64,000 bases of DNA, taken from positions 6,610 to 70,609 of IMG/VR virus record IMGVR_UViG_3300027707_000013; one strand, 5' to 3'. This DNA comes from a virus. Taxonomy: Duplodnaviria > Caudoviricetes. The translations under genes were made by a program, and so were the position numbers. Below are positions 6,321 through 41,325 of the stretch, one piece after another; position 1 is the first letter of the stretch; each line of letters opens with the position of its first letter. Below the pieces are notes generated by a model. That model saw only the letters and a program-made list of their open reading frames with translations. It searched no databases and was not told the origin of the DNA.

Positions 6321-7047
6321 TCTTTACAAAATAGCTAAAAAGGTATTGATGAGTCAATCATTTTTTGAAGATGGTTACGAATATCAATTTGTTAAAGTTG
6401 AACTTGATGAGGATAGGTTTGCGTTTAACATTACGGTAAACGTTATTTTACCTAAAAAGGGTCAGTCATATGCAACTGCAGTTTTTAGTGGTGGAATTCA
6501 TAAAATACTTGATAATATATGGGGGTATATCGGTTCATCTTTTTCGTATTCTGAACATATATTAGTTGACGGTAAAGAACCAATAAACAATGGTGTCTAT
6601 ATTAGCCCTGAAAAACAAAATCAACTTTTATTTCAACTAAGAAAACAGATAAAAAGAGCCGAAATTATTACTAATAATAAAAACGTTTTATCGTTTGACG
6701 TTCAATGGATAAGAGATGATAAAGAATTTTACAAATACAACGACGTATATGTTAACTTGTATTTCTTTATTGACTTATCTAATTTTAAATTTGATGGTAA
6801 AAGGGTTATACCTAATTTAAAAATTGGTGATGAAATTGCTGGTATAATCAGCGATAACTTATATGATGATGATTCTTTTAAAAGTCGTGTGGATAATATT
6901 ATATACTCGGTAATGAATGATGAAATGGACCTACGTAATATTGATGATATGTACCTTGAAGGGTTATGGCATGTAAGAAAATTAGATGGGATGGAAGTCT
7001 TTCCAACGATGAGAGGTTACGATATAACCGACAACATGTTTACTTAA
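6313..7047 (+). CDS. hypothetical protein
   Basis: 244-aa ORF overlapping the upstream stop codon. Confidence 0.6.
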   Translation: MTNLYKIAKKVLMSQSFFEDGYEYQFVKVELDEDRFAFNITVNVILPKKGQSYATAVFSGGIHKILDNIWGYIGSSFSYSEHILVDGKEPINNGVYISPEKQNQLLFQLRKQIKRAEIITNNKNVLSFDVQWIRDDKEFYKYNDVYVNLYFFIDLSNFKFDGKRVIPNLKIGDEIAGIISDNLYDDDSFKSRVDNIIYSVMNDEMDLRNIDDMYLEGLWHVRKLDGMEVFPTMRGYDITDNMFT

Positions 7048-29277: not shown

Positions 29278-30051
29278 ATGACTATGAAACTAAAACAATT
29301 ATTTATTGCGATTTTCGCAACATCGGTATTATTCGTATCTTGTAGTAAAGATGACGTGTATGAACCAGTTAAACAAACTTCAATTGAATCAACTCAGGGA
29401 CAAGACCTAAGAACAATGTCTACATCACCGACTGTTTCAACGGTTGAACCAAAGGCTTACATTTTTGTTGAAAGTAGAATTAACAAAAGTCCAAGAAAAG
29501 TTGTGGATTATTTAAAAACAACTCAAAGACATTCACAATCAACAGGAACAAGATTTCTTTCTTTTTTTGTGAATGGTATTACAAGTTCTAATTTTAATGA
29601 TTTAATTAATTATTATAATATACCTTTTTGGAAAACTGACGCATCTTTAAAGGTTATCGAAACCGAAGTACCACAAGTAACTGGAGATGTGGATTCTTAT
29701 AATAACCCAAAATTAGCCTATAATTTTACAACTGTTAAAATACCTAAAGGTACGTTCAACGATTGGGGATGGGTTACGGTACTTATACCAACGTCAGCGA
29801 TGAATAATGACACAAAAAGACAAAATCAAATTGGTTATTATGCTAAAAACGGAAACAGAATAACCTCAAGCGGTAATAATACTCAAACAATTATTAACAC
29901 TAATAGACAACTATCGTCTTACGTAATCAATTATACAGGAAATGTAATCCCACAAGGTCAATATCGAGTATACACTACTCATGGCGGATTTGGAATGATG
30001 ATTGGTTTTAACTCAACAAATGACGTTTATTTTAGGGGAGCGTCTAATTAA
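29278..30051 (+). CDS. Bacteroidota-type lipoprotein
   Basis: VLFVSC lipobox; TATCTTTG upstream. Confidence 0.65.
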   Translation: MTMKLKQLFIAIFATSVLFVSCSKDDVYEPVKQTSIESTQGQDLRTMSTSPTVSTVEPKAYIFVESRINKSPRKVVDYLKTTQRHSQSTGTRFLSFFVNGITSSNFNDLINYYNIPFWKTDASLKVIETEVPQVTGDVDSYNNPKLAYNFTTVKIPKGTFNDWGWVTVLIPTSAMNNDTKRQNQIGYYAKNGNRITSSGNNTQTIINTNRQLSSYVINYTGNVIPQGQYRVYTTHGGFGMMIGFNSTNDVYFRGASN

Positions 30052-30107
30052 TTGAGATTTATTTAGAATTTATTTGATTTATAATATATTTATTGTAATA
30101 TTGCACT

Positions 30108-30206
30108 ATGAAAACTATGAACACAAATACAAATTTAGACACACCGACAACTCCTAATGGGGATGCAGGCACTATTTGCGTAAGTTCAGAAGCGAGTGGT
30201 TGGTAA
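30108..30206 (+). CDS. leader peptide 1 of tRNA cluster 1 (T/N/D/P/G/A-rich)
   Basis: MKTMNTNTNLDTPTTPNGDAGTICVSSEASGW*; 18 of codons 3-22 are T, N, D, P, G or A. Confidence 0.8.
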   Translation: MKTMNTNTNLDTPTTPNGDAGTICVSSEASGW

Positions 30207-30227
30207 CAATATTATAGCCAATTATCT

Positions 30228-30258
30228 AAACCCTGAACTAATACTTCAGGGTTTTTTT
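30228..30258 (+). terminator. attenuator terminator 1
   Basis: AAACCCTGAA-CTAATAC-TTCAGGGTTT plus T-run, 5 nt before tRNA-Pro. Confidence 0.85.
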
Positions 30259-30263
30259 ATGTA

Positions 30264-30337
30264 CGGGATGTAGCGTAGTCAGGTATCGCGCCACGTTTGG
30301 GACGTGGAGGCCGTTGGTTCGAATCCAGCTATCCCGA
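30264..30337 (+). tRNA. trnP: tRNA-Pro(TGG)
   Basis: Cloverleaf; anticodon arm CCACG-TTTGGGA-CGTGG. Confidence 0.95.
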
Positions 30338-30377
30338 CAAAAGTTTTCCTTATGGAAAAGTTTGATTATTATTATAT

Positions 30378-30449
30378 TGCTCTATCGTATAAGGGTTATT
30401 ACGGTTGACTGTTAATCAATTTATCCAAGTTCGAATCTTGGTGGAGCAG
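30378..30449 (+). tRNA. trnN: tRNA-Asn(GTT)
   Basis: GTTGA-CTGTTAA-TCAAT; T-loop TTCGAAT. Confidence 0.9.
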
Positions 30450-30529
30450 CTGTGGTGGGTGGAAAAATTCCAATGTTGTAGTATCGTGGATGGAGAAATC
30501 CTGAAGCATAAACAGACAAAAAGAAAGAA

Positions 30530-31018
30530 ATGATGTTAAAAACATTCTTATTGACTGGATTGTTATTGTTAGGAACAATAACAACAAAAGCACAAGAGAA
30601 GCAAGTACAGATTGATTCAAATACTAAAGAGAGTATTACAAAAGAAAATTTGTATGAGCAGATAATGAAGTACGGGATTAAGTTCCCTGATGTGGTATTC
30701 GCACAAGCGGTATTAGAGTCAGGTCAATTTACCTCCAAGTTGTTCAAATCGGCAAACAACTTATTTGGTATGAAAATACCAACAAAAAGGGAGTCATCGG
30801 CAAATGGTAAAACCAAAAGTGGATACTCAAGTTATGAAGATTGGAACTTTAGTGTATACGATTACTCTTTATGGCAAAATTTTATGTTAAGAAACAAAAG
30901 TGATTTAACAAAAAAAGAGTACCTTGCACTCCTTGGTAAGGTTTATGCAGAAGACAAAAGATATGTTAGTAGTTTAAAACGAGTAATCGGTGAACACCAA
31001 CATATTTTAACACAGTAA
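30530..31018 (+). CDS. glucosaminidase/FlgJ-like muramidase with signal peptide
   Basis: AQAVLESG, NNLFGMK, YAEDKRY. Confidence 0.85.
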   Translation: MMLKTFLLTGLLLLGTITTKAQEKQVQIDSNTKESITKENLYEQIMKYGIKFPDVVFAQAVLESGQFTSKLFKSANNLFGMKIPTKRESSANGKTKSGYSSYEDWNFSVYDYSLWQNFMLRNKSDLTKKEYLALLGKVYAEDKRYVSSLKRVIGEHQHILTQ

Positions 31019-31047
31019 AAAGTTTGGGGTGAAACTCCCCATAATTT

Positions 31048-31120
31048 GGTCCCGTGGTTGAATGGTTACAATTCCACCCTGTCACGGTGCGAGATACGGG
31101 TTCGAATCCCGTCGGGACCG
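31048..31120 (+). tRNA. trnD: tRNA-Asp(GTC)
   Basis: GGTCCCG/CGGGACC acceptor; loop CTGTCAC. Confidence 0.95.
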
Positions 31121-31177
31121 CAAAGAGGGTTATATGTGTAGTAACCTCAGGTGTGATATCCGCCACTACACTCTTAA

Positions 31178-31253
31178 GCGGTAGTAGCTCAGTTGGTAGA
31201 GCTCGTTCCTTCCAAGTACGAGGTCGCAGGTTCGAACCCTGTCTACCGCTCCA
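31178..31253 (+). tRNA. trnG: tRNA-Gly(TCC), CCA encoded
   Basis: Loop CTTCCAA; GCGGTAG/CTACCGC acceptor. Confidence 0.95.
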
Positions 31254-31300
31254 AGGGTTGTGGGAACCCAAGAGTATGTGATGAGCATACACCCACAAAT

Positions 31301-31376
31301 GCTTCCATAGCTCAGTTGGTAGAGCAGCTGATTTGTAATCAGCAGGTCGTTGGTTCGAGCCCGACTGGAAGCTCCA
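31301..31376 (+). tRNA. trnT: tRNA-Thr(TGT), CCA encoded
   Basis: GCTGA-TTTGTAA-TCAGC. Confidence 0.95.
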
Positions 31377-31381
31377 CTTTA

Positions 31382-31453
31382 GGGGATTTAGCTGAGTTGG
31401 TTTAGCACCGCCCTTGCACGGCGGGGACAAGAGTTCGAGTCTCTTATTCTCCA
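31382..31453 (+). tRNA. trnA: tRNA-Ala(TGC)
   Basis: G3.U70 pair; CCGCC-CTTGCAC-GGCGG. Confidence 0.95.
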
Positions 31454-31467
31454 CAAACAAATAAACG

Positions 31468-31821
31468 ATGGCACATCCAAACTTACATGCAAAATCATCC
31501 GCCAAAAAGTTTGGTGGGAAACCTGAGGACTACATTCATTTACACGAATGGTTAGATGAAACCAAAGGATGGTTTGGAGATTCACTTCATAGAATGTTTA
31601 GACATCATAGTGAAGGAATCTTTGAAATGGAAAAACGATTTGGTACTGAATTCAAAAACAGTGACGGGGATACCGTTTACACAAGATATATTGGAGAACA
31701 ACATATAAAAGAGGATTGTAATAACTACATTCCGTCAGCCAAAGAGTGGGTAAATAACATATCTACAAATCAACGACCTCAGTGGATGTTAAAAACAATA
31801 AAATTAGAATTCACTGACTGA
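31468..31821 (+). CDS. DUF6915-like protein
   Basis: MAHP..HAKSSAKKFGG.PEDY..HRMFRHHSEG..EQHIKED. Confidence 0.7.
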   Translation: MAHPNLHAKSSAKKFGGKPEDYIHLHEWLDETKGWFGDSLHRMFRHHSEGIFEMEKRFGTEFKNSDGDTVYTRYIGEQHIKEDCNNYIPSAKEWVNNISTNQRPQWMLKTIKLEFTD

Positions 31822-31832
31822 TATTTATAAGT

Positions 31833-32546
31833 ATGAAAGAACTTTTAACACCAGAAGAAAAACAATACTTAAAAAGAGTATCCAATTACTTAGGTTCAAT
31901 GGGGATGCAAGATGGTAATGTTGAAATTGACATAGATAATGGATGGACATTTAGTTATGATGATATCGATTGGAATTATATTACCCATTTCACTAATAAC
32001 TATAATGCGGATATTCCATCAGGATTAATACCAATACTTCAAAAAATAATGAAATATTGTGATGATGAGGGGTTAATTAAAGAACATGATGATAATATAA
32101 ATTATCAGAGATTAGAATATGATATTGATGTTGATGCTAAAAAAATTCAATTAAGTCATTGGTGGTCTTTTTATGATAGAGGTGAAGGTAGTTCAAGAGA
32201 ATATGATTCAGAAGAGGATATTGAAAGGTTTGATAGTTGGATGGAACTGTATTTTTCCGATGTCGAAATTCCCAATGATGGTGTCCTAACTGTAACCTAT
32301 AATGGGTCAGGTGATTCAGGTTATATGGAGAGTTCGTTTGAAGAAAATAATGACCAAGTTCCTGCAGGAATTGAGGATTGGTGTTACGGAGAATTATCAA
32401 GAAATTATGGTGGATGGGAAATTAATGAAGGGTCCGATGGTAACTTTATATTTGACTTCAACACAAAAATAGTTACATTAAATCATACAGAGAACATTGA
32501 AGAAAACGCAAGCGATACTTATTTTGAGCAGAGCTTCGCAAATTAA
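31833..32546 (+). CDS. DUF6878-like protein
   Basis: YNGSGDSG and GGWEINEGSDG motifs. Confidence 0.6.
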   Translation: MKELLTPEEKQYLKRVSNYLGSMGMQDGNVEIDIDNGWTFSYDDIDWNYITHFTNNYNADIPSGLIPILQKIMKYCDDEGLIKEHDDNINYQRLEYDIDVDAKKIQLSHWWSFYDRGEGSSREYDSEEDIERFDSWMELYFSDVEIPNDGVLTVTYNGSGDSGYMESSFEENNDQVPAGIEDWCYGELSRNYGGWEINEGSDGNFIFDFNTKIVTLNHTENIEENASDTYFEQSFAN

Positions 32547-32562
32547 GACATATTTATAAAAC

Positions 32563-32631
32563 ATGAGAACAACATTATTACATACGTTATTACTTGATAG
32601 ACAAGGTCTATTAAGAAGACTTATGCCGTAA
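32563..32631 (+). CDS. leader peptide 2 of tRNA cluster 2 (Leu/Arg-rich)
   Basis: MRTTLLHTLLLDRQGLLRRLMP*; 5 TTA, 2 CTT, 1 CTA and 4 AGA codons. Confidence 0.8.
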   Translation: MRTTLLHTLLLDRQGLLRRLMP

Positions 32632-32663
32632 TTTGTTCAGAGCCGTTCTATTTATAGATATTC

Positions 32664-32695
32664 AACCCTGAACCAAAAAAGTTCGGGGTTTTTTT
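32664..32695 (+). terminator. attenuator terminator 2
   Basis: AACCCTGAAC-CAAAAAA-GTTCGGGGTT plus T-run. Confidence 0.85.
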
Positions 32696-32735
32696 ATGAC
32701 TTTTTCAGAGATATTCACTATCTTTGTAAAATAAC

Positions 32736-32820
32736 GCCGAGGTGGTGTAATGGTAGCCACGAGGGACTTAAAATCCCTTGGTCAGTAACGACCGTGAGGG
32801 TTCGAGTCCCTCCCTCGGTA
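32736..32820 (+). tRNA. trnL: tRNA-Leu(TAA)
   Basis: AGGGA-CTTAAAA-TCCCT; long variable arm. Confidence 0.95.
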
Positions 32821-32827
32821 CAAAATT

Positions 32828-32901
32828 GGTTTGGTAGCTCAGCTGGATAGAGCAACGCACTTCTAATGCGTAGGTCATAGGTTCGAATCCTATCCGAATC
32901 A
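32828..32901 (+). tRNA. trnR: tRNA-Arg(TCT)
   Basis: ACGCA-CTTCTAA-TGCGT. Confidence 0.95.
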
Positions 32902-32903
32902 CA

Positions 32904-32997
32904 ATCATTATCGTAGCTCAGTGAGATACGGCGCAAGATACACACTTAAACAACGCGGGAGAGGCGCCTTTCCCGATGTGGCTGAAGCGATAATGAT
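32904..32997 (+). ncRNA. unassigned structured RNA between tRNAs
   Basis: 10-bp closing stem ATCATTATCG/CGATAATGAT with internal CGGGAGAG/CTTTCCCG hairpin. Confidence 0.45.
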
Positions 32998-33001
32998 ATT
33001 T

Positions 33002-33082
33002 ACCCCGATGGCGTAATGGTAGCCGCGCAAGTCTTAGGAACTTGTGACTTCGGTCGTATCGGTTCGAGTCCGATTTGGGGTA
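33002..33082 (+). tRNA. trnL: tRNA-Leu(TAG)
   Basis: CAAGT-CTTAGGA-ACTTG; long variable arm. Confidence 0.95.
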
Positions 33083-33096
33083 CAAGAAAGTAAATT

Positions 33097-33816
33097 ATGT
33101 ACGTACAAAATCCTTTAGTTAAAACTAGTCAACCGAATTTATTTCATTTGGCTCCAATTCCCGTATTCATGAAAGTTTTCGGTGACGATGAATTCCATGA
33201 TGAGGTATACACGTTTGGGTTTGAGAATCTAACTCCCCAACAAAAGTTAATGGGTCAGGAACTTCCTGAACAATACGACATTAACAGACAATCAAATTAT
33301 TCTGTGAATTACGATAAGAGAGAAATGTGGGTGGAACCTACAGAGTATAATCCTATTGGTAGTCGTTTTTGGACACCGCCTAACGACTTTCTTGACATCA
33401 ACAATGAGAACGTTAAGAAGATTAGACAAAGGGTTGAGAGTGGTTATATGGAGTTATTAGACATGTTAGGGTTCCAACACAATAGAAAACCTGATATTAC
33501 CGAGAGCTGGATTCAATATTATAACCCAACTGAAGGTAGAGGTCATAATGCTCACAATCACTGTAGATGGCAACCAAATGAAGAAACAATGTTAAACTTC
33601 TCAGGAGGTTATTACTTATCTGACGGTGACCCTATTGCCGACCATCCTTATAGTGGAGTTTTTACATTCCATATTAGAGGGATGTCTCACTTTATCAGAC
33701 CTAAAAAAGGTATGTTAATCATTTGGCCGTATGATATCGTACATTCGGTTAAACCATTTTACGGAAAAACACATAGATGTGTTATTAATTTCAATATTCA
33801 AGACGGAAAAAAATGA
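33097..33816 (+). CDS. 2OG-Fe(II) oxygenase-like protein (TIGR02466-like)
   Basis: ESWIQYY, HNAHNH, FSGGYYL, KGMLIIWP..HSVKP, RCVINFN. Confidence 0.75.
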   Translation: MYVQNPLVKTSQPNLFHLAPIPVFMKVFGDDEFHDEVYTFGFENLTPQQKLMGQELPEQYDINRQSNYSVNYDKREMWVEPTEYNPIGSRFWTPPNDFLDINNENVKKIRQRVESGYMELLDMLGFQHNRKPDITESWIQYYNPTEGRGHNAHNHCRWQPNEETMLNFSGGYYLSDGDPIADHPYSGVFTFHIRGMSHFIRPKKGMLIIWPYDIVHSVKPFYGKTHRCVINFNIQDGKK

Positions 33817-33867
33817 TTATCTATATTATATATATAATAAATAATATGTTTAAATTAACAAGTAAAG

Positions 33868-34455
33868 ATGCTATATAAAACTTTTGTTATTTCATTAAAA
33901 AGAAGACCCGATAGAAGAGCAAAAATTAAAGATTTGTTTATAAAAAACAATCTAAAGTTTTCTTTTTATGACGCAATTGATGGACGTGATTTAATTGTTA
34001 CGGATGAGATTGAAGAATTATTTTTAAATAATGAGTTTGAAGATTGGGGTATAATAAAAGAATGTATCTATGGTAATACCTTAACTCATCTAAAGCTATT
34101 GAAAGAATGTTCTGAGCAGAATTTACCGTATTTTATTTTTGAGGATGATGTTAAAATAAAGAAAGATATTAATTTCACGTTTGAGAGTATTGTTGAAAAA
34201 CAATTAGATGCTTTTTGGTTAATAGATTTAGAACCTTCGTCGTTAGCATACGTTGTTTGGCCTGAAGGGGCTAAAAAAATACATGATTGGATAATGAATG
34301 TTGGAAAGGCAGATAAAGGAATGGATTGGAAATTATTAGAAATAAAAAACACTAATCTCCTAAATTCTGATAAGATATGGGACGAATACTTCTATCAAGT
34401 ACCTGGAGAAGATTCCGATATTGCCCCTAAAGGATATAAAAAAATAATAATATGA
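33868..34455 (+). CDS. glycosyltransferase family 25
   Basis: VISLKRRPDRR, FYDAIDG, THLKLL, IFEDDV. Confidence 0.85.
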   Translation: MLYKTFVISLKRRPDRRAKIKDLFIKNNLKFSFYDAIDGRDLIVTDEIEELFLNNEFEDWGIIKECIYGNTLTHLKLLKECSEQNLPYFIFEDDVKIKKDINFTFESIVEKQLDAFWLIDLEPSSLAYVVWPEGAKKIHDWIMNVGKADKGMDWKLLEIKNTNLLNSDKIWDEYFYQVPGEDSDIAPKGYKKIII

Positions 34456-35030
34456 AACAAATAGATTTAGATATTTTTGTATTTCCAAAAATCATGACTG
34501 ATGAACTTATTGAAAGACTAATGTCGGTTAGAAATAAGAGCGGTTTTGATGGAAGATTAGATTTACATATTGAGGATAAAAACACATTTTATATTTTTGA
34601 TAATTTTTGGTTTTCTGAAATTGAATCCAAATATTTGGGACATTATTTTAGTACGTATGATGTTGAAAAAGGAATAGGATTAAATTCAAGTGAGGAGACT
34701 ATAAAACAATTAAGTAAATTTGTTGAAACAAAATGGAGAGATTTATTCTTACTTCATTATACACCTAATAGTTTAATTAACGGTGAAAAAGATATTCATT
34801 GGGATTTTAGTGGGTTAAGTATGGTTGGATGTTTAACTGATGATTATGAAGGAGGTAAACTAATTTTTCCTAGACAGAATGTTACTTACAGATTAGAAAA
34901 AGGGGATGTTATCGTGTTTCCAGGAGGTTTAACTCACCCACACTATGTGGAACCCGTAACTAAAGGTTTTAGGGATGTAATTGTTGGTCAAAGTATGACA
35001 TTACCTCAAGACCATAAAATCGATTATTAA
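34452..35030 (+). CDS. 2OG-Fe(II) oxygenase (lysyl/prolyl hydroxylase-like)
   Basis: IHWD, DYEGGKL, FPG..THPH.VEPVTKG.R. Confidence 0.8.
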   Translation: MKQIDLDIFVFPKIMTDELIERLMSVRNKSGFDGRLDLHIEDKNTFYIFDNFWFSEIESKYLGHYFSTYDVEKGIGLNSSEETIKQLSKFVETKWRDLFLLHYTPNSLINGEKDIHWDFSGLSMVGCLTDDYEGGKLIFPRQNVTYRLEKGDVIVFPGGLTHPHYVEPVTKGFRDVIVGQSMTLPQDHKIDY

Positions 35031-35036
35031 AAATAA

Positions 35037-35067
35037 TTTGACAACTCAGAGATTTTTACTATCTTTG
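35037..35067 (+). promoter_or_regulatory. Bacteroidota-type promoter of leader 3
   Basis: TTTG-N19-TATCTTTG. Confidence 0.7.
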
Positions 35068-35085
35068 AACTATATATTAGAAATA

Positions 35086-35187
35086 ATGAAAACTACAATA
35101 AAACATATGGTCTTTAGTACACAGCAAAAATCGATTTGTTGGTATGAGCGTATGCGCGATTGTAGTTCGGATATAATTTTTGAGTAA
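35086..35187 (+). CDS. leader peptide 3 of tRNA cluster 3
   Basis: MKTTIKHMVFSTQQKSICWYERMRDCSSDIIFE*; contains all 13 amino acids of cluster 3 and no L, P, G, A or N. Confidence 0.8.
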   Translation: MKTTIKHMVFSTQQKSICWYERMRDCSSDIIFE

Positions 35188-35222
35188 TTTTTTAAAATAA
35201 AAATAAACCAAATTTTTTATAT

Positions 35223-35255
35223 ACCCCGAACTCGTAAAAAGGTTCGGGGTTTTTT
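35223..35255 (+). terminator. attenuator terminator 3
   Basis: ACCCCGAACT-CGTAAAAA-GGTTCGGGGT plus T-run. Confidence 0.85.
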
Positions 35256-35271
35256 GTTTTAAAATTGTTAG

Positions 35272-35283
35272 GTTCTTTGAAAT
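35272..35283 (+). promoter_or_regulatory. boxA-like antitermination element
   Basis: GTTCTTTGAAAT; the same TTCTTTGAAAT lies just upstream of the tmRNA. Confidence 0.5.
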
Positions 35284-35313
35284 ATTGGTTGTAATTTTGT
35301 ACTTGATTTAAAC

Positions 35314-35387
35314 GTCGCGTTGGACAAATTGGTTAAGTCGTCATCCTTTCACGATGAAGATTACGGGTTCGAACCCCGTACGCGATA
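35314..35387 (+). tRNA. trnE: tRNA-Glu(TTC)
   Basis: TCATC-CTTTCAC-GATGA. Confidence 0.95.
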
Positions 35388-35397
35388 CATAATTTAC

Positions 35398-35469
35398 AGT
35401 TCCTTAGCTCAGTGGAAGAGTCCTTGCCTTACATGCAAGTAGTCGTAGGTTCGAATCCTACAGGAACTA
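35398..35469 (+). tRNA. trnV: tRNA-Val(TAC)
   Basis: CTTGC-CTTACAT-GCAAG. Confidence 0.95.
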
Positions 35470-35474
35470 CATTA

Positions 35475-35547
35475 GGTGACGTAGCTCAGTTGGTAGAGCA
35501 CTTGCCTGAAGAGCAAGGTGTCGTCAGTTCGATTCTGACCGTTACCA
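35475..35547 (+). tRNA. trnF: tRNA-Phe(GAA)
   Basis: CTTGC-CTGAAGA-GCAAG. Confidence 0.95.
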
Positions 35548-35622
35548 CGGAGTCCCGAATTAACGGGAAACCCCCACTCCCATATGGCAGCCAGTCCGTT
35601 AACCTGGTGAAGTGGGGTATTT

Positions 35623-35696
35623 GACCTCTTAGCTCAGTTGGCTAGAGCACTTCACTTTTAATGAAGGAGTCCCGAGTTCGAGTCTCGGAGGGGTCA
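35623..35696 (+). tRNA. trnK: tRNA-Lys(TTT)
   Basis: CTTCA-CTTTTAA-TGAAG. Confidence 0.95.
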
Positions 35697-35711
35697 CAAA
35701 AAACATATATT

Positions 35712-35945
35712 ATGAAAGCAATACTTGAATTTAATTTACCTGAAGATAATCAGGAGTTTGAATTGGCAACAAAGGGTCTTAAATTTTGGTCGGTCTTATG
35801 GGAATTAGACCAATCTTTAAGGACTAAAACAAAATATGCTCCCGACAATTTACCTCAAGATAAGTACGACGCTTATCAAGAAATAAGGGATGAACTTCGT
35901 GAGTTAATGTCGGATAATAATGTTAATTTTGACATGGTTAAATAA
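35712..35945 (+). CDS. conserved-looking phage hypothetical protein
   Basis: MKAILEFNLPED; start moved out of tRNA-Lys. Confidence 0.65.
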   Translation: MKAILEFNLPEDNQEFELATKGLKFWSVLWELDQSLRTKTKYAPDNLPQDKYDAYQEIRDELRELMSDNNVNFDMVK

Positions 35946-35956
35946 AAAACAATAAG

Positions 35957-36580
35957 ATGATAGATAACATAAACATAATAAAACCGTTATTAAACTTCGA
36001 GGAGAAGGGAGACTTCTATATGTTGTATGTCTTCAAACGTAAGAAAGACCAACCTGAAGGTGAGAGAGATAACCATCAGTCGGTTAGAACTATCAAAACA
36101 TATTGCATTGAATCAATTGACCATTTGGAAAGGAGATATGATGAGGTAAAACAACTATGTGAGATGTTCAAGGCAAGAGCTTACATTCATGTTCAGAAAC
36201 AAAATCACAGAGATGTGTCTTTGGATATGTTGGCGAGTTTAGCTGAGAGAATTAAGAATGGAGTTCAAAACCAAAAGGGGTTATTTGATTCGGTTGTTGG
36301 ACAGATTAAGACTCAAGAGAAAAGATGGATTATCGATATTGATAACGTATCAATGGATGGATTCAATCATGACCCATACCAAGTATCGTTGAGAGAATAT
36401 ATAAACGAGTTACAGAAAGAGGCAGGAAAAGACCAAGGAATGACTTTTATTAAGACAAGAAGTGGATTCCATATCATAACTCAACCTTTTAATGTGATGA
36501 AATTTAAAGAAAGATATCCCGAGGTTGATATCCAAAAAAAGAACCCAACATTATTATATTATCCCAATAATTTGGGTTAA
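35957..36580 (+). CDS. hypothetical protein, possible AEP/primase-like fold
   Basis: WIIDID..TRSGFH resembles the DxD and SGxH motifs; the fold assignment is weak. Confidence 0.55.
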   Translation: MIDNINIIKPLLNFEEKGDFYMLYVFKRKKDQPEGERDNHQSVRTIKTYCIESIDHLERRYDEVKQLCEMFKARAYIHVQKQNHRDVSLDMLASLAERIKNGVQNQKGLFDSVVGQIKTQEKRWIIDIDNVSMDGFNHDPYQVSLREYINELQKEAGKDQGMTFIKTRSGFHIITQPFNVMKFKERYPEVDIQKKNPTLLYYPNNLG

Positions 36581-36595
36581 ATTTGTAAAACAAAG

Positions 36596-36667
36596 GGTCG
36601 GTTGGCCGAGTGGTTTAGGCGGTAGTCTGCAAAACTATCTACACAGGTTCGATTCCTGTACCGACCT
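36596..36667 (+). tRNA. trnC: tRNA-Cys(GCA)
   Basis: GTAGT-CTGCAAA-ACTAT. Confidence 0.95.
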
Positions 36668-36668
36668 C

Positions 36669-36788
36669 ATGACAAAGAAAGAAATTAACAAAATGGTTAA
36701 AGCCATTAGAATGACAACAAAAAAAGCTTGTAAGAATAAGAAATCTGCTCGTAAGTTTCTTATTAAGGCGGGAATTGTAAAAAAATAA
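36669..36788 (+). CDS. 39-aa Lys-rich peptide
   Basis: MTKKEINKMVKAIRMTTKKACKNKKSARKFLIKAGIVKK*, filling the Cys-Trp spacer. Confidence 0.5.
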   Translation: MTKKEINKMVKAIRMTTKKACKNKKSARKFLIKAGIVKK

Positions 36789-36789
36789 T

Positions 36790-36862
36790 ACGTGTGTAGC
36801 TCAGACGGTAGAGCAGTAGTCTCCAAAACTATGTGTCAGAGGTTCGAATCCTTTCATGCGTG
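36790..36862 (+). tRNA. trnW: tRNA-Trp(CCA)
   Basis: GTAGT-CTCCAAA-ACTAT. Confidence 0.93.
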
Positions 36863-36865
36863 CTA

Positions 36866-37127
36866 AAGGTTGATTGGAAAGCCTTACACCTTCTCTAAGG
36901 AGTTGGAATGTAAGCGAGGGGACTGAATGAAGTCGAAGAAATGCCAATCATAAAAGTAGATGTCCACGCACCCATCTTCTACTTTCCTTAAAATATTAGG
37001 TTGATTGGGGAATGATGATGTAAATACCTGGTAGTGGTTGGAATAAGACATCGTCGGAGTTTAAATTACCATTAGTAATGCCAATCATAAAAGGAGATGT
37101 CCACTGAACCATCTTCTCCTTTCCTTA
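36866..37127 (+). ncRNA. two tandem copies of an unassigned structured RNA motif
   Basis: Both copies read AGGTTGATTGG..GTTGGAAT..ATGCCAATCATAAAAG(T/G)AGATGTCCAC..CCATCTTCT(A/C)CTTTCCTT, with a compensatory T-A/G-C change. Confidence 0.65.
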
Positions 37128-37131
37128 TTTT

Positions 37132-37213
37132 GGGAGTATCGCATAGCGGCAATTGCAGAAGACTGTAAATCTTCCCTCTTTAGAGTTCGTAGGTTCGAGT
37201 CCTACTCCTCCCA
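37132..37213 (+). tRNA. trnY: tRNA-Tyr(GTA)
   Basis: GAAGA-CTGTAAA-TCTTC; long variable arm. Confidence 0.95.
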
Positions 37214-37219
37214 CATTTT

Positions 37220-37293
37220 GGACTTGTAGCTCAGTTGGTTAGAGCGCTTCACTCATAATGAATAGGTCCCTGGTTCGAGCCCAGGCTGGTCCA
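37220..37293 (+). tRNA. tRNA with CAT anticodon (probably Ile2, possibly Met)
   Basis: Loop CTCATAA; C4-G69 pair as in Ile2 tRNAs. Confidence 0.85.
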
Positions 37294-37299
37294 CAATAT

Positions 37300-37370
37300 T
37301 GCCCGATGGTGTAGCGGTAGCACAAATGTTTTTGGTGCATTTAGGGTTGGTTCGAATCCAGCTCGGGTAA
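37300..37370 (+). tRNA. trnQ: tRNA-Gln(TTG)
   Basis: AATGT-TTTTGGT-GCATT; TGCCCGA/TCGGGTA acceptor. Confidence 0.92.
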
Positions 37371-37379
37371 CTAAATAAA

Positions 37380-37451
37380 ATGAATATGTGGTTTTTAATT
37401 GTTTGGATTGTATTGATGATTATTGTCAAATGGGACAATGACCGTGATTAG
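37380..37451 (+). CDS. 23-aa hydrophobic peptide
   Basis: MNMWFLIVWIVLMIIVKWDNDRD*. Confidence 0.35.
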   Translation: MNMWFLIVWIVLMIIVKWDNDRD

Positions 37452-37523
37452 GGTTTTATGGTGTAACGGATAGCACACGAAACTACGGATTTCGGAGTTT
37501 AGGTTCGAATCCTAATAGAACCT
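37452..37523 (+). tRNA. trnR: tRNA-Arg(ACG)
   Basis: CGAAA-CTACGGA-TTTCG. Confidence 0.92.
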
Positions 37524-37529
37524 CTAAAC

Positions 37530-37599
37530 TGCGTGGCTTAGAGGAAAAGAACTATCTCTCATAAGGATGGTCAATTGGGTTCGAAACCCAAACACGCAA
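37530..37599 (+). tRNA. atypical tRNA with CAT anticodon (Met-like), weak D-arm
   Basis: TGCGTG/CACGCA acceptor, loop CTCATAA, T-arm TTGGG-TTCGAAA-CCCAA. Confidence 0.6.
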
Positions 37600-37604
37600 C
37601 ATAT

Positions 37605-37678
37605 GGTGGCTATAGCTCAGTTGGCAGAGCGCTTGGTTGTGGTCCAAGTTGTCACGGGTTCGATTCCCGTTAGTCACC
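37605..37678 (+). tRNA. trnH: tRNA-His(GTG)
   Basis: G-1 and C73; CTTGG-TTGTGGT-CCAAG. Confidence 0.95.
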
Positions 37679-37812
37679 CAAAGTGTTTACAACGGACAAG
37701 GCTTAGGCAAGTGAGTTGAGAATGAGTAGTAGGAGATTTAATCGTTTGGACTACAGAAAGTTTGATACAATAGATTGGTGGGATGCGAGTGGTTGACCAA
37801 AACACTTATTAC

Positions 37813-37898
37813 GGAAGGATGGCAGAGTTGGTCTATCGCGCTTGACTTGAAATCAAGTGTACTGCAAGGTACCGTGGGTTCGAATCCTACTCCTTCCG
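37813..37898 (+). tRNA. trnS: tRNA-Ser(TGA)
   Basis: CTTGA-CTTGAAA-TCAAG; long variable arm. Confidence 0.95.
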
Positions 37899-37930
37899 CA
37901 ATTTTTTACCCATATTGACTATTTATTAGT

Positions 37931-38380
37931 ATGGAAAAAGTAACATTAACAAAAGAGCAACTATTCAAGGTAATGCATTTGAATGAGCAGGAAAATAAGC
38001 CTGAAACTAAAAGTAACTCAGGATTTAAGAATATGGTGTCAACACTATTACATTCTCAAACTCAAGTACATATTTTTCATTTACAGACTAAGTCATATTC
38101 TGAACATAAAGCATTACAAAAGTACTATGAAGGTATTGACGCATTAGTGGACGGTATTATCGAAAGTTATCAAGGTAAGTACGATGTTATTAAAAATTAT
38201 GATTCAGTTAAAACTGAGGACTACAAGAGTTCTGAGCAAGTAATTAATTATTTCAAATCATTAGATACTATGATTGAGAAAGCAAGAAAAGGAGTTAAAG
38301 AATCGTATATTCAAAACCAAATTGATACGGTTCAGGAATTAATATTTTCCACAGTGTATAAGTTAAGATTCTTAAAATAA
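37931..38380 (+). CDS. ferritin/Dps-like protein (DUF5856-like) with head-type propeptide
   Basis: QVHIFHLQTKSYSEHKALQKYYEGI..D.IIESYQG; TATTTAT at 37920. Confidence 0.7.
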   Translation: MEKVTLTKEQLFKVMHLNEQENKPETKSNSGFKNMVSTLLHSQTQVHIFHLQTKSYSEHKALQKYYEGIDALVDGIIESYQGKYDVIKNYDSVKTEDYKSSEQVINYFKSLDTMIEKARKGVKESYIQNQIDTVQELIFSTVYKLRFLK

Positions 38381-38474
38381 TATACTGTTGAAATCTAATA
38401 TTGAATTCCTCTAATTAAAAGTTAGGGGAATTTTTTTTTATGGTATGATTTTAATATATTTGTACCAACAACAA

Positions 38475-38548
38475 TGGAATATAACTCAGTTGGTTAGAGT
38501 GTCATCCTGATACGGTGAAAGTCGATGGTTCGAGTCCATCTATTCCAA
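38475..38548 (+). tRNA. trnI: tRNA-Ile(GAT)
   Basis: TCATC-CTGATAC-GGTGA. Confidence 0.93.
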
Positions 38549-38550
38549 CA

Positions 38551-38886
38551 ATGGAAAATGAAATTAAAAAGAAAACTGGCAATAGAGCCAAGTTTAAGAA
38601 AATTGTAAAAGAGTATAAAGAAGCGACCAATAAAGAGATTTGGGAAGGAGTTAGAGATAATTTTACTTTCGGGTTTATTGGAGCGACTATTGTTGTGTTT
38701 ATAGCGACAAGAGCTGATATTGCGGTATTATTAGGTTATTTAGCTTATTACTTTTTTGTAGGTAAGATAGTTAATCGACCAAAATACGTAACCGATTTGG
38801 GAAAATTAATTGTGTTTCCAGTACCATCAGCATTAGGTGCATTTATAGGATATAAATTATCCTATTACCTTTTACAGTTATTGTAA
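38551..38886 (+). CDS. membrane protein
   Basis: Three hydrophobic segments; start moved out of tRNA-Ile. Confidence 0.6.
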   Translation: MENEIKKKTGNRAKFKKIVKEYKEATNKEIWEGVRDNFTFGFIGATIVVFIATRADIAVLLGYLAYYFFVGKIVNRPKYVTDLGKLIVFPVPSALGAFIGYKLSYYLLQLL

Positions 38887-38892
38887 TGTTTT

Positions 38893-38978
38893 GGAAAGTT
38901 ACCCAAGTTGGTGAAGGGGCTTGTTTGCTAAACAAGTAGGGTGTAAAAGCCGCGAGGGTTCGAGCCCCTCACTTTCCG
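38893..38978 (+). tRNA. trnS: tRNA-Ser(GCT)
   Basis: CTTGT-TTGCTAA-ACAAG; long variable arm. Confidence 0.95.
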
Positions 38979-39066
38979 CAGAAAAAAAATATTTGAAAAG
39001 TTGACATAATCGATTAACCTTCTTATATTTATAATCTATTAATAAATAAAACAAATAAAAAAAAAC

Positions 39067-39252
39067 ATGAAAAAAGTAGTATTAGCAATCTTTACAATCG
39101 TAGCGTTAGCCTCTTGTGGTAACGGAAAATCAACTGAAGTTAAATCTGACTCAACTGTAGTAGCGGTAGATTCAGTTAAAGTAGATTCAGCAGCAGTGGC
39201 TGTAGATTCTGTAAAAGCTGAAGCGCCTGCGTCAGTAGAAGAAAAAAAATAA
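39067..39252 (+). CDS. small lipoprotein with D(S/T)(A/V/T) repeats
   Basis: IVALASC lipobox; own TTGACA-N17-TATATT promoter and terminator. Confidence 0.75.
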   Translation: MKKVVLAIFTIVALASCGNGKSTEVKSDSTVVAVDSVKVDSAAVAVDSVKAEAPASVEEKK

Positions 39253-39297
39253 TTACATTCTATTGGAAAAACAAAACCCACCTATTGGTGGGTTTTT

Positions 39298-41325
39298 TTA
39301 TTTTAATAATCTTTTAATTTTTTCAATGTTTTCGGTAACTTTCTTTCTTCCAAGTGGGTCCTTGATAAAATTTAATATCCATGGGTCTACTTCTCTTTCG
39401 TCAGCAACTCCTCCCCATCTTTTCTGAGTCATTTCTCCTGTTTTCTCATCGTATTTATTTCCGAATACTTTATCAATTGCCTTTGCAGGTAAAGAAGATA
39501 CCATTGATGTGATATTGTCTATAGGTGTTCTATCACTATCAAAGACAGATGACCTACCCGATTGATTTTTCTTATTGTCTTTACCCGATGAACTATCTTT
39601 TTTAGGAGAATCTGTTTTAATACCGCCCGAACCAATCGGTACTGTATTCCATGAACCGTCTAACATTGTAACTTCAACATCAGAATCAGTTTTACCTATA
39701 ACATCTCCAACTGAAATTGATTGACCATCTCTGACCATAGGAGAACTTATACCACAAAATTGTAGGTAGAATTTTTTATTATCCTCATTCTTGATTGTAA
39801 TTTGGTTTGTACATGATGAAGAATATCTTTTGTTAAAAACAACACCTGATATCGGGCTTTTAATTTTTGGATTAGTGTCTTTAGGAATTATAATTCTACC
39901 GTATCTGTTACTAACGTCTCTACCAAAACTTTTTTGTTCTCCAAGTTGGGTATTTTCTGTTTTAAGAAATTTACTTGCAATCGATTTACCCATCTGTACT
40001 AAATAATCGTCTTTAGCGACATTAGGAGCATCAAATACTGAACCTGATTTTGCTGATTGAACCCCTGTTGCAGCATTATATGCCGTTTCACTCGAATTTG
40101 AATCTACTGTAGGAGCAGTTCCTGACTCTCCTGAGTTATTCGATACGTGTAAATGGTTGAAGTGGTTACCACCTGTATTTGTTTGCCACAGGACCGCTTT
40201 ACTATTACCTGACTCAGTGTTTAGTGTATAACCCATAGAAACCAAGGCGTTGGCTAGTTTGGTTCCAAGAGACCTAAACTCCGCATTACCGTTGGACGCA
40301 TTGGTTGCACCTCCTGCACCAACACCATTTAAGATTGCAATATCAACAGCGGTTTGTTGACCATGTCTACTTGTATTACCTGTCTTAGTTTTTATAGAAT
40401 GACCTGTACTTGCAGTGGTAATTGTTGTAGTAATACCCGCAGCTTTTGATGCGGCATCAAGGTCATCTAATAACGGTTTATTAACCGAATCAAATTGAGT
40501 TCCATCACTATCGTATTTAAGATTACTATAACTTGTGTCATTGAGTTGAACCAACTCTAATTCACTTAAGATATTCTTATTGTTAGTTAGAATATCTTCA
40601 TATATTGATAATATCTGTTCATCAACATTTTCTGTTTTAAGAAATTTACTTGCAATTGATTTACCCATTTGTACTAAATAATCGTCTTTATCGACATTAG
40701 GTGCATCAAATACTGAATCTGATTTTGCGGTTACAGCCCCCGAAGTACTTGTAGCAGCATTATACGCTGTTTCACTACTATTTCCTGTCACGGTAGTTCC
40801 TGAAATTGATTGTCCGTTAGCACATTTTAAAGTCCCGTTGTCATTTAAGAATTGTCTTACATTACCTGATTCAACTCCAATATGTAAGTGGTCGTAATCA
40901 CTACCTGGAAAGTCCATAACATAACCCAAAAGTTGACCACACGTAACTTTATCACCTTGTTTTACCGTCACATCTTTCAAGTGAGTATAATACACGTCTG
41001 GAAGACCATCATCACTATCAACAGTAAATCCTGCCCCAAATAAAGTTTTCCCATCTTTTTTTATTGGTGTCGGGCCATAATCAGTATATGTTTTAAGAGT
41101 TCCTCCTATAACTGCATATACAGGTGTACCTATTGTGGCTTTGATATCCCAAGCATTATTACTTTGCCATCCTGATTGACCCCCATGGGCTCCATCCGAA
41201 GGGATTGATACATTACTTCCACCAAATAACTCACTACTTGCGTTAGAAACCTCATTAATTGATTTGGTCTTTAAAATAGACTCATACAATGATAAGATAT
41301 CTAATATTTCTTTTTCTTTGGACAT
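39298..41325 (-). CDS. multidomain peptidoglycan hydrolase (M23, M15-like, degenerate M23)
   Basis: WDIKA..GTPVYA..YTHL..HLHIG; SRHGQQTAVD..HFNHLHVS; duplicated linker. Confidence 0.75.
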   Translation of the reverse strand: MSKEKEILDILSLYESILKTKSINEVSNASSELFGGSNVSIPSDGAHGGQSGWQSNNAWDIKATIGTPVYAVIGGTLKTYTDYGPTPIKKDGKTLFGAGFTVDSDDGLPDVYYTHLKDVTVKQGDKVTCGQLLGYVMDFPGSDYDHLHIGVESGNVRQFLNDNGTLKCANGQSISGTTVTGNSSETAYNAATSTSGAVTAKSDSVFDAPNVDKDDYLVQMGKSIASKFLKTENVDEQILSIYEDILTNNKNILSELELVQLNDTSYSNLKYDSDGTQFDSVNKPLLDDLDAASKAAGITTTITTASTGHSIKTKTGNTSRHGQQTAVDIAILNGVGAGGATNASNGNAEFRSLGTKLANALVSMGYTLNTESGNSKAVLWQTNTGGNHFNHLHVSNNSGESGTAPTVDSNSSETAYNAATGVQSAKSGSVFDAPNVAKDDYLVQMGKSIASKFLKTENTQLGEQKSFGRDVSNRYGRIIIPKDTNPKIKSPISGVVFNKRYSSSCTNQITIKNEDNKKFYLQFCGISSPMVRDGQSISVGDVIGKTDSDVEVTMLDGSWNTVPIGSGGIKTDSPKKDSSSGKDNKKNQSGRSSVFDSDRTPIDNITSMVSSLPAKAIDKVFGNKYDEKTGEMTQKRWGGVADEREVDPWILNFIKDPLGRKKVTENIEKIKRLLK
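39952..40717. repeat. 91-bp direct repeat (39952-40042 and 40627-40717)
   Basis: Four mismatches; encodes SVFDAPNV.KDDYLVQMGKSIASKFLKTEN. Confidence 0.85.

Follow-up and report, generated by a model that had tools for sequence, protein, structure and literature searches.

Why would a phage set a promoter, a very short open reading frame (ORF) and a strong terminator directly in front of its tRNA genes? The question arises at positions 35037-35313 of a 64,000-nucleotide stretch (positions 6,610 to 70,609) of the IMG/VR virus record IMGVR_UViG_3300027707_000013 (Duplodnaviria; Caudoviricetes), a stretch called the window here. The window is AT-rich (34% G+C), belongs to a 70.6-kb virus record from freshwater metagenomes, and includes genes for a large terminase and a portal protein. 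Using ARAGORN, we found 23 tRNA genes, all on the plus strand and grouped into four blocks (A to D), each directly preceded by a strong intrinsic terminator. The element in question stands before block C (35314-37899), which contains the genes for tRNA-Glu, Val, Phe, Lys, Cys, Trp, Tyr, Met(cat), Gln, Arg(acg), His and Ser(tga). A preliminary description, made from the letters of the sequence alone, had proposed an attenuator whose leader samples the amino acids of the downstream tRNAs, so that the loss of any one of these tRNAs would stall the ribosome. Our analysis makes it likely that the element acts as a ribosome-mediated (leader-peptide) transcription attenuator with a translated leader, and that read-through from its promoter into the phage tRNA block is under its control. 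The phage would then probably make more of the block tRNAs when its ribosomes are short of any one of them. All features given below lie on the plus strand, with positions counted in the window.

The leader element of block C

The element is arranged in the order promoter P1, ATG-initiated ORF, terminator and tRNA-Glu (35314). P1 (35037-35067) is of the Bacteroidota -33/-7 type, with TTTG at 35037-35040, a 19-nt spacer and TATCTTTG at 35060-35067, and ends about 19 nt upstream of the leader ATG. Both boxes are conserved across 14 variants found in relatives, and the spacer is variable. As several protein genes of the window are also preceded by TATCTTTG, this motif appears to be the ordinary -7 box of the phage. 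The 33-codon ATG leader announced in the preliminary description was indeed present at 35086-35187 (33 codons plus TAA) with all the codons named there (ATA, ATT, AGT, TCG, CGT and CGC), and the span first assigned to the element, 35037-35313, reaches exactly from the -33 box of P1 to the base before tRNA-Glu. No Shine-Dalgarno sequence was visible upstream of the leader ATG, as is usual in Bacteroidota. A Pfam search with the leader peptide gave no match. Hence a short ORF stands between a promoter and the genes to be regulated, as expected of a leader-peptide attenuator, and both the ORF and P1 are conserved in relatives.

The composition of the leader (Lys3, Thr3, Ile4, His1, Met3, Val1, Phe2, Ser4, Gln2, Cys2, Trp1, Tyr1, Glu2, Arg2 and Asp2) follows the genes behind it. 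All 13 amino acids of the 14 downstream tRNAs, that is the 12 of block C plus the Ile of block D, are present. At the amino-acid frequencies of the phage, the chance of finding all 12 block-C amino acids in 32 random residues is about 0.002, and full coverage of block C occurred in 33 of the 13,585 windows of 32 residues drawn from the phage's own proteins. Codons 1-23 (35086-35154) alone carry all 13 amino acids (P ~4e-5). Leu, Pro, Asn, Gly and Ala, for which the tRNAs are encoded in blocks A and B, are absent from the leader (P ~2e-5). The choice of Arg codons also tracks the anticodon, with CGT/CGC before tRNA-Arg(acg) and AGA before tRNA-Arg(tct); AGA represents 69% of the Arg codons in the phage genes. 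Regulatory codons matching the regulated tRNAs, another feature that defines such attenuators, were therefore found, but as single codons and not as runs.

The RNA of the element has alternative pairings. Hairpin 1:2, the anti-antiterminator (35091-35167), extends across the ORF and has an outer stem made of 35091-35099 and 35159-35167. Region 2 (35164-35170, AGTTCGG) pairs with 35226-35232 (CCGAACT) in the antiterminator, and an AU-rich hairpin (35171-35222) is stacked under this region 2:3 helix; the antiterminator as a whole covers 35164-35232 (-13.7 kcal/mol). Regions 3 and 4 make up the intrinsic terminator (35223-35256), a 10-bp stem at 35223-35250 with six G-C pairs followed by a T tract (-16.3 kcal/mol). 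Its stem is the strongest of 14 terminator-like sites in a 10-kb region, for which shuffled sequences gave an expectation of 5.7. In minimum free energy (MFE) folds, the four-region attenuator structure was recovered in every variant, with antiterminators of -9 to -14 kcal/mol and terminators of -15 to -18 kcal/mol. The hairpin that brings regions 2 and 3 together was likewise kept in every variant, its AU-rich sequence varying.

To quantify these pairings, we used an alignment of 16 sequences (A1), with slid structures as controls. In the structure combining hairpin 1:2 and the terminator, 89% of the cells were paired versus 35-40% in the slid structures, and five pairs had compensatory changes. 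Taken separately, the helices of hairpin 1:2 were 78-89% paired, also with compensatory changes, and the terminator was 98% paired across the 16 variants. The antiterminator core reached 96% versus 5-55% when slid, and included one G-C to A-U change that the terminator did not need. Moreover, pairing of region 2 with the terminator was retained by covariation across three unrelated terminator types. In a divergent module, GGAGATGG at the end of the ORF pairs with CCATCTCC (duplex of -17.3 kcal/mol, P<0.002 versus shuffled sequences). Other divergent versions of region 2 pair as CUGUAGUC with GACUACAG and as GUCUCGA with UCGGGAC.

We also folded the RNA with the part covered by a ribosome masked. 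With the A site at codons 1-23, the antiterminator was predicted with 4-7 of its 7 core pairs; with the A site at codons 24-34, it was lost (0 of 7). The sensing window computed in this manner corresponds exactly to the part of the leader that holds all 13 amino acids, and both non-cognate Asp codons fall outside it. The stop codon lies 1-27 nt after region 2 in each of the 34 variants in which region 2 was found by pattern.

The fold of the leader RNA (z-score -4.15) would also suit an untranslated RNA at 35074-35256, either an antiterminator switch controlled by a protein or an RNA, or a trans-acting small RNA, in which the open frame is incidental. Several traits of the variants fit such an RNA: they are conserved at the nucleotide level with very few synonymous changes, some of their amino-acid changes are compensatory RNA changes (for example, A-U to G-C in the inner helix), and the nucleotides of region 2 are conserved though read in two frames (29 variants in one, 5 in another). 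A 2-nt gap in the G004 type shifts the frame over region 2. Still, the ATG is invariant in the 16 aligned variants and the frame remains open in all of about 45. In the leaders homologous to that of block C, gaps within the ORF are of 3 nt, whereas gaps outside are not multiples of three. Anticodon-matched Arg codons and the coverage of each block by its leader, described below for the relatives, would be meaningless in an RNA that is not read by ribosomes, and no Rfam family matched. We thus regard an untranslated RNA as quite improbable. As for known leaders, the Rfam families (Leu_leader, His_leader, Thr_leader, Trp_leader and others) gave no match at 35037-35313, 30108-30254 or 32563-32690 with E up to 1. 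The sole match to Leu_leader, at 39233-39299, is on another terminator and scored 26 bits versus a gathering score of 50. No T-box riboswitch was detected in 29800-39300 with the Rfam model.

Leaders and tRNA blocks in relatives and sister modules

Relatives were found via the flanking 2OG-oxygenase-like gene, via the core pattern of the leader and, independently of the leader, via a 19-nt block that follows the terminator. A degenerate pattern for this last block was set aside, its 119 matches being mostly noise; only the matches to the exact 19-mer were relatives. The search yielded about 45 distinct leader peptides from IMG/VR and metagenome contigs, including non-homologous leaders, different terminators and reshuffled tRNA blocks. 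The rule that the amino acid of each tRNA in a block is present in the leader held in 13 of 14 modules. It held fully in 16 of the 17 modules with a complete block, taken as those in which the sequence continues for 4.2 kb or more beyond the leader. When blocks were shuffled among leaders, the agreement in presence and absence dropped (P <=2.5e-4 for the 14-module set, 5e-5 for the 17-module set), although these values overstate independence because the variants share ancestry. One check proposed in the preliminary description, whether homologous leaders keep their amino-acid coverage despite sequence divergence, turned out positive, and the leaders were seen to change with rearranged blocks.

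Individual records illustrate this co-evolution. Record G003 has a different tRNA arrangement and two mutually non-homologous leaders. Its first leader fronts tRNA-Glu, Ala, Met, Gly, Asp, Arg(tct) and Thr and contains all seven amino acids, with AGA as its Arg codon. The second leader, followed by tRNA-Pro, Ile, Lys, Cys, Trp, Asn, Tyr, Gln, Met, Val, Phe, His, Ser and Arg(acg), contains 14 of 14 with CGT for Arg, and has no Glu, Ala or Gly. In one rearranged example, the second block has gained tRNA-Asn and tRNA-Pro and lost tRNA-Glu, and the leader of that block has Asn and Pro codons and no Glu codon. The leaders of L134 and L010 are identical at 22 of 28 positions, and their differences include Arg/Gln, Val/Ser and Lys/His, matching the presence of tRNA-Arg(acg), Val and Lys in the block of L134 only. 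G004 has neither tRNA-Phe nor a Phe codon, and its close relative G002 has both. G005 combines tRNA-Asn in its block with four Asn codons; its block contains no tRNA-Glu on the plus strand, and its leader no Glu codon. A two-way covariation, in which the loss of a tRNA would also entail the loss of its codon, was considered and rejected since it is not general; only the one-way rule (tRNA present, codon present) holds.

Two sister modules lie upstream in the window. Module 1 (30108-30254) fronts block A (30264-31454; Pro, Asn, Asp, Gly, Thr and Ala) and consists of a 32-codon leader (30108-30206) and a terminator (30228-30254). Twenty of 31 residues of this leader are cognate to block A (P=5e-4). 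Its terminator ends only 9 nt from tRNA-Pro, too short a gap for a promoter, and the block-A tRNAs must therefore come from read-through. Module 2 (32563-32690), in front of block B (32736-33083; Leu(taa), Arg(tct) and Leu(tag)), has a leader of 22 codons (32563-32631), in which 8 of the 21 residues are Leu and 4 are Arg encoded by AGA (P=7e-7), and a terminator at 32664-32690. Of the 229 short ATG ORFs in the window, each sister leader was the top-ranked one for its own amino-acid set, and each fits its own block and not that of the other. The number of Ala codons in the leader of module 1 was also compared with the presence of tRNA-Ala in the relatives, and was inconsistent. In L035 (461-557) and L027 (3264-3360), the module 1 leader shares its last seven residues with the block-C leader of the window; this identity suggests that the 3' halves of leaders, which include region 2, have been swapped between modules.

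These comparisons also bear on whether the ORF could encode a functional micro-protein of 33 residues with conserved His and Cys, its link to tRNAs being coincidental or indirect. The core of the peptide is conserved in many variants and the unit has its own promoter and terminator, as such a gene might. In contrast, the C-terminal third freely changes frame and sequence, non-homologous leaders at other blocks follow the same coverage rule, the peptide has no Pfam match, and a micro-protein would not predict the covariation of the antiterminator. We consider this explanation very improbable, the least credible of those weighed here. For a leader-peptide attenuator, every defining feature that can be tested at the sequence level is present: the ORF, the promoter, the terminator, the alternative pairings with their covariation, and the match between leader and block with its co-evolution are all established by the sequence and its comparison among relatives.

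Proposed mechanism and the promoter-like block after the terminator

From these features we infer that the leader is translated, that ribosomes stall at single codons and how strong the effect would be. Transcripts from P1 would start about 12-15 nt before the ATG. During smooth translation, a ribosome at codons 24-34 or at the stop would cover region 2, the terminator at 35223-35250 would form and transcription would end. If the ribosome stalled in codons 1-23 for a scarce aminoacyl-tRNA, it would hold region 1 and leave region 2 free. The freed region 2 and the 5' arm of the terminator would then pair, stacked on the AU hairpin; no terminator would form, and RNA polymerase would continue into tRNA-Glu and the genes behind it. 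When no ribosome is present, hairpin 1:2 would sequester most of region 2, leading to termination. Because the sensing window has 1-3 codons for each amino acid of the downstream tRNAs, any single shortage would raise transcription of the whole block, and read-through would fall again as phage tRNAs accumulate. The attenuator with OR-gate logic put forward in the preliminary description is supported in silico by the promoter, the ORF, the pairings and their covariation; it is qualified by a reverse rule that is loose and by a possible second route of transcription.

Several observations weigh against this attenuator. First, the terminator state is always more stable than the antiterminator (-16.3 vs. 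-13.7 kcal/mol), which requires a kinetic switch like that of classical attenuators, and 4 of the 7 antiterminator pairs are predicted even without a ribosome. Since most amino acids are represented by one or two codons and there are no runs, only a severe shortage should stall the ribosome. In addition to the shared ancestry of the variants already mentioned, the coverage rule has one exception, record G005, which has no Asp codon though a tRNA-Asp follows. Leaders also often retain codons for tRNAs that are absent from the block; in one case, a leader followed by a block of five tRNAs has retained codons for Arg, Val, Phe, His, Tyr and Met that the block does not call for. Module 2 is missing from several relatives, meaning that it is neither essential nor universal. 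Finally, and as the main reservation, a conserved promoter-like block, P2, with -33/-7 boxes at proper spacing in most relatives, lies between the terminator and tRNA-Glu, so that P1 may contribute little to the production of the tRNAs. With an active P2, read-through from P1 under the attenuator would only come on top of a basal level.

P2 (35275-35299) consists of CTTTGAAATATTGGTTGTA overlapping TAATTTTG and is a candidate promoter. In most relatives it appears as TTG, a 20-nt spacer and TAnnTTTG. Its first 19 nt (35275-35293), which occur once in the window, are nearly invariant in all relatives, including the positions that would belong to the spacer. As this is more conservation than a plain promoter needs, the 19-nt stretch may be the binding site of a factor or have a role in the RNA. 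In the second module of G003, the first half of the P2 block is kept without a -7 box. In eight relatives (L001, L004-L009 and L011), an insert of about 80 nt closed by GAAATAC/GTATTTC separates the P2 block from tRNA-Glu (L005, 6855-6942); it had no Rfam match, and its fold was not unusual (z -1.4). Two metatranscriptome contigs (RNA libraries) bridge the terminator (X15 record 4, 34922-35306; X18 record 28, 35130-35299). They were not used as evidence either way, since contigs hide transcript ends and DNA carry-over is possible.

P2 raises an explanation in which the terminator does no more than close a tiny P1 unit, or the operon upstream, P2 alone drives transcription of the tRNAs, and the resemblance between ORF and block has no regulatory consequence. 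The high conservation of P2 and its two boxes at 20-nt spacing in most relatives speak for it, as do plain TAnnTTTG boxes found 11-14 nt before the first tRNA of blocks B and D and of block B of L010. Some relatives also have a terminator before tRNA-Leu without any leader. However, a separate promoter leaves unexplained why region 2 and the 5' arm of the terminator covary in three terminator types that are unrelated to each other, why the stop codon is constantly close to region 2, and why the block is mirrored in the composition of the leader and in its choice of Arg codons. The idea that P2 is the only route is further weakened by the 9-nt gap of module 1, which leaves no space for a promoter after the terminator, and by the G003 module that has half of P2 and no -7 box; moreover, the covariation of region 2 would be purposeless unless read-through matters. 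A separate promoter as the whole explanation is, in our view, unlikely, though it is the most credible of the alternatives to attenuation.

Genomic setting, known attenuators and significance

Block C is followed by block D (38475-38979; Ile(gat) and Ser(gct)). The preliminary description had cautioned that these two tRNA genes lie beyond a terminator and could have their own promoter, and this caveat holds: they stand behind a second terminator (38403-38433) and a TATATTTG box (38453-38460). Three protein ORFs are located among the tRNA genes here (35706-36580 and 37931-38380), and any read-through transcript would include them. Two of their products (79 and 207 aa) had no Pfam match; the third (149 aa) matches DUF5856, and its gene is kept in relatives together with its terminator. 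Between blocks B and C (33097-35030) are two 2OG-Fe(II)-oxygenase-like genes, both below the Pfam cut-off, and a family-25 glycosyltransferase gene. The tRNA(cat) at 37220-37294 is without the three G-C pairs of the anticodon stem typical of initiators. It could act as an elongator tRNA-Met or as a lysidine-type Ile2 tRNA, the latter as assumed in the preliminary description. Within block B, tRNA-Arg(tct) and tRNA-Leu(tag) are separated by a 99-nt spacer (32903-33001) with an 11-bp closing stem (MFE of -31.4 kcal/mol, z -3.6); this spacer had no significant Rfam match, and L010 has a different insert at this place.

The phage has no near cultured relative, the closest large terminase (TerL) of a cultured phage being less than 31% identical (tblastn). 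A nucleotide search against cultured phages returned only tRNA-to-tRNA matches and no relative. Flavobacterium "immuto" phages, among the nearest by TerL, were considered as a cultured model and rejected: their 3-4 tRNAs lie behind an ordinary 51-residue ORF without a terminator.

The element resembles the enterobacterial leaders trpL, hisL, leuL and pheL in its promoter, short ORF, alternative 1:2, 2:3 and 3:4 hairpins and terminator before the regulated genes, and in the position of its stop codon, at which a ribosome completing the leader would mask region 2. It differs from them in regulating tRNA genes and not enzymes, in having 1-3 codons for each of about 13 amino acids in place of codon runs, and in belonging to a phage with Bacteroidota-type promoters in which each block has a matched leader. 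Multivalent attenuators are known, such as the ilvGMEDA leader (Ile, Leu and Val) and the thr leader (Thr and Ile), which have several codons for each of the two or three amino acids they respond to. The window leader would share with them the sensing of multiple amino acids and the OR logic, but it samples 13, mostly with one or two codons each, from a list set by the downstream tRNA genes. Attenuation also reaches the translation apparatus elsewhere: the pheST attenuator, with its pheM leader, controls a synthetase, and the T-boxes of aminoacyl-tRNA synthetase genes bind uncharged tRNA directly without a ribosome. In both, as proposed here, tRNA charging or availability acts on the translation apparatus through a choice between terminator and antiterminator. 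Unlike pheM, the window element would control tRNAs, and unlike a T-box it would depend on the ribosome.

As outlined in abstracts on the subject, the reason for the presence of tRNA genes in phages has been a matter of debate for decades (PMC10264068), and phage tRNAs have been proposed or shown to replace cleaved or depleted host tRNAs (PMC10264068, PMC11464382, PMC12409363). The abstracts of these three papers are about tRNA function and describe no leader-peptide sensor of tRNA transcription. Full-text literature searches found no paper on leader-peptide attenuation of tRNA genes and none on the regulation of phage tRNA genes.

The replacement of tRNAs as an answer to tRNA-targeting defences is the likely biological context of the element. 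A broader proposal, which we hold to have an even chance of being right, is that large Bacteroidota phages carry modular sensors of the tRNA pool. Each tRNA block would have its own co-evolving "checklist" leader, turned on when any matching host tRNA is depleted or cleaved, by host shut-off or by an anticodon-nuclease defence, and turned off once phage tRNAs have restored decoding. If true, leader-peptide attenuation would be seen for the first time at tRNA genes, and its reach would grow from amino-acid operons to include the translation machinery itself. The leader would also be a natural OR gate with 13 inputs, about 170 nt long and suitable for reuse in sensing tRNA availability. For the phage, such control would mean a counter-defence induced only when needed, in which decoding capacity is measured codon by codon and answered with the matching set of tRNAs, and it would favour the view that phage tRNAs serve to replace depleted or cleaved host tRNAs.

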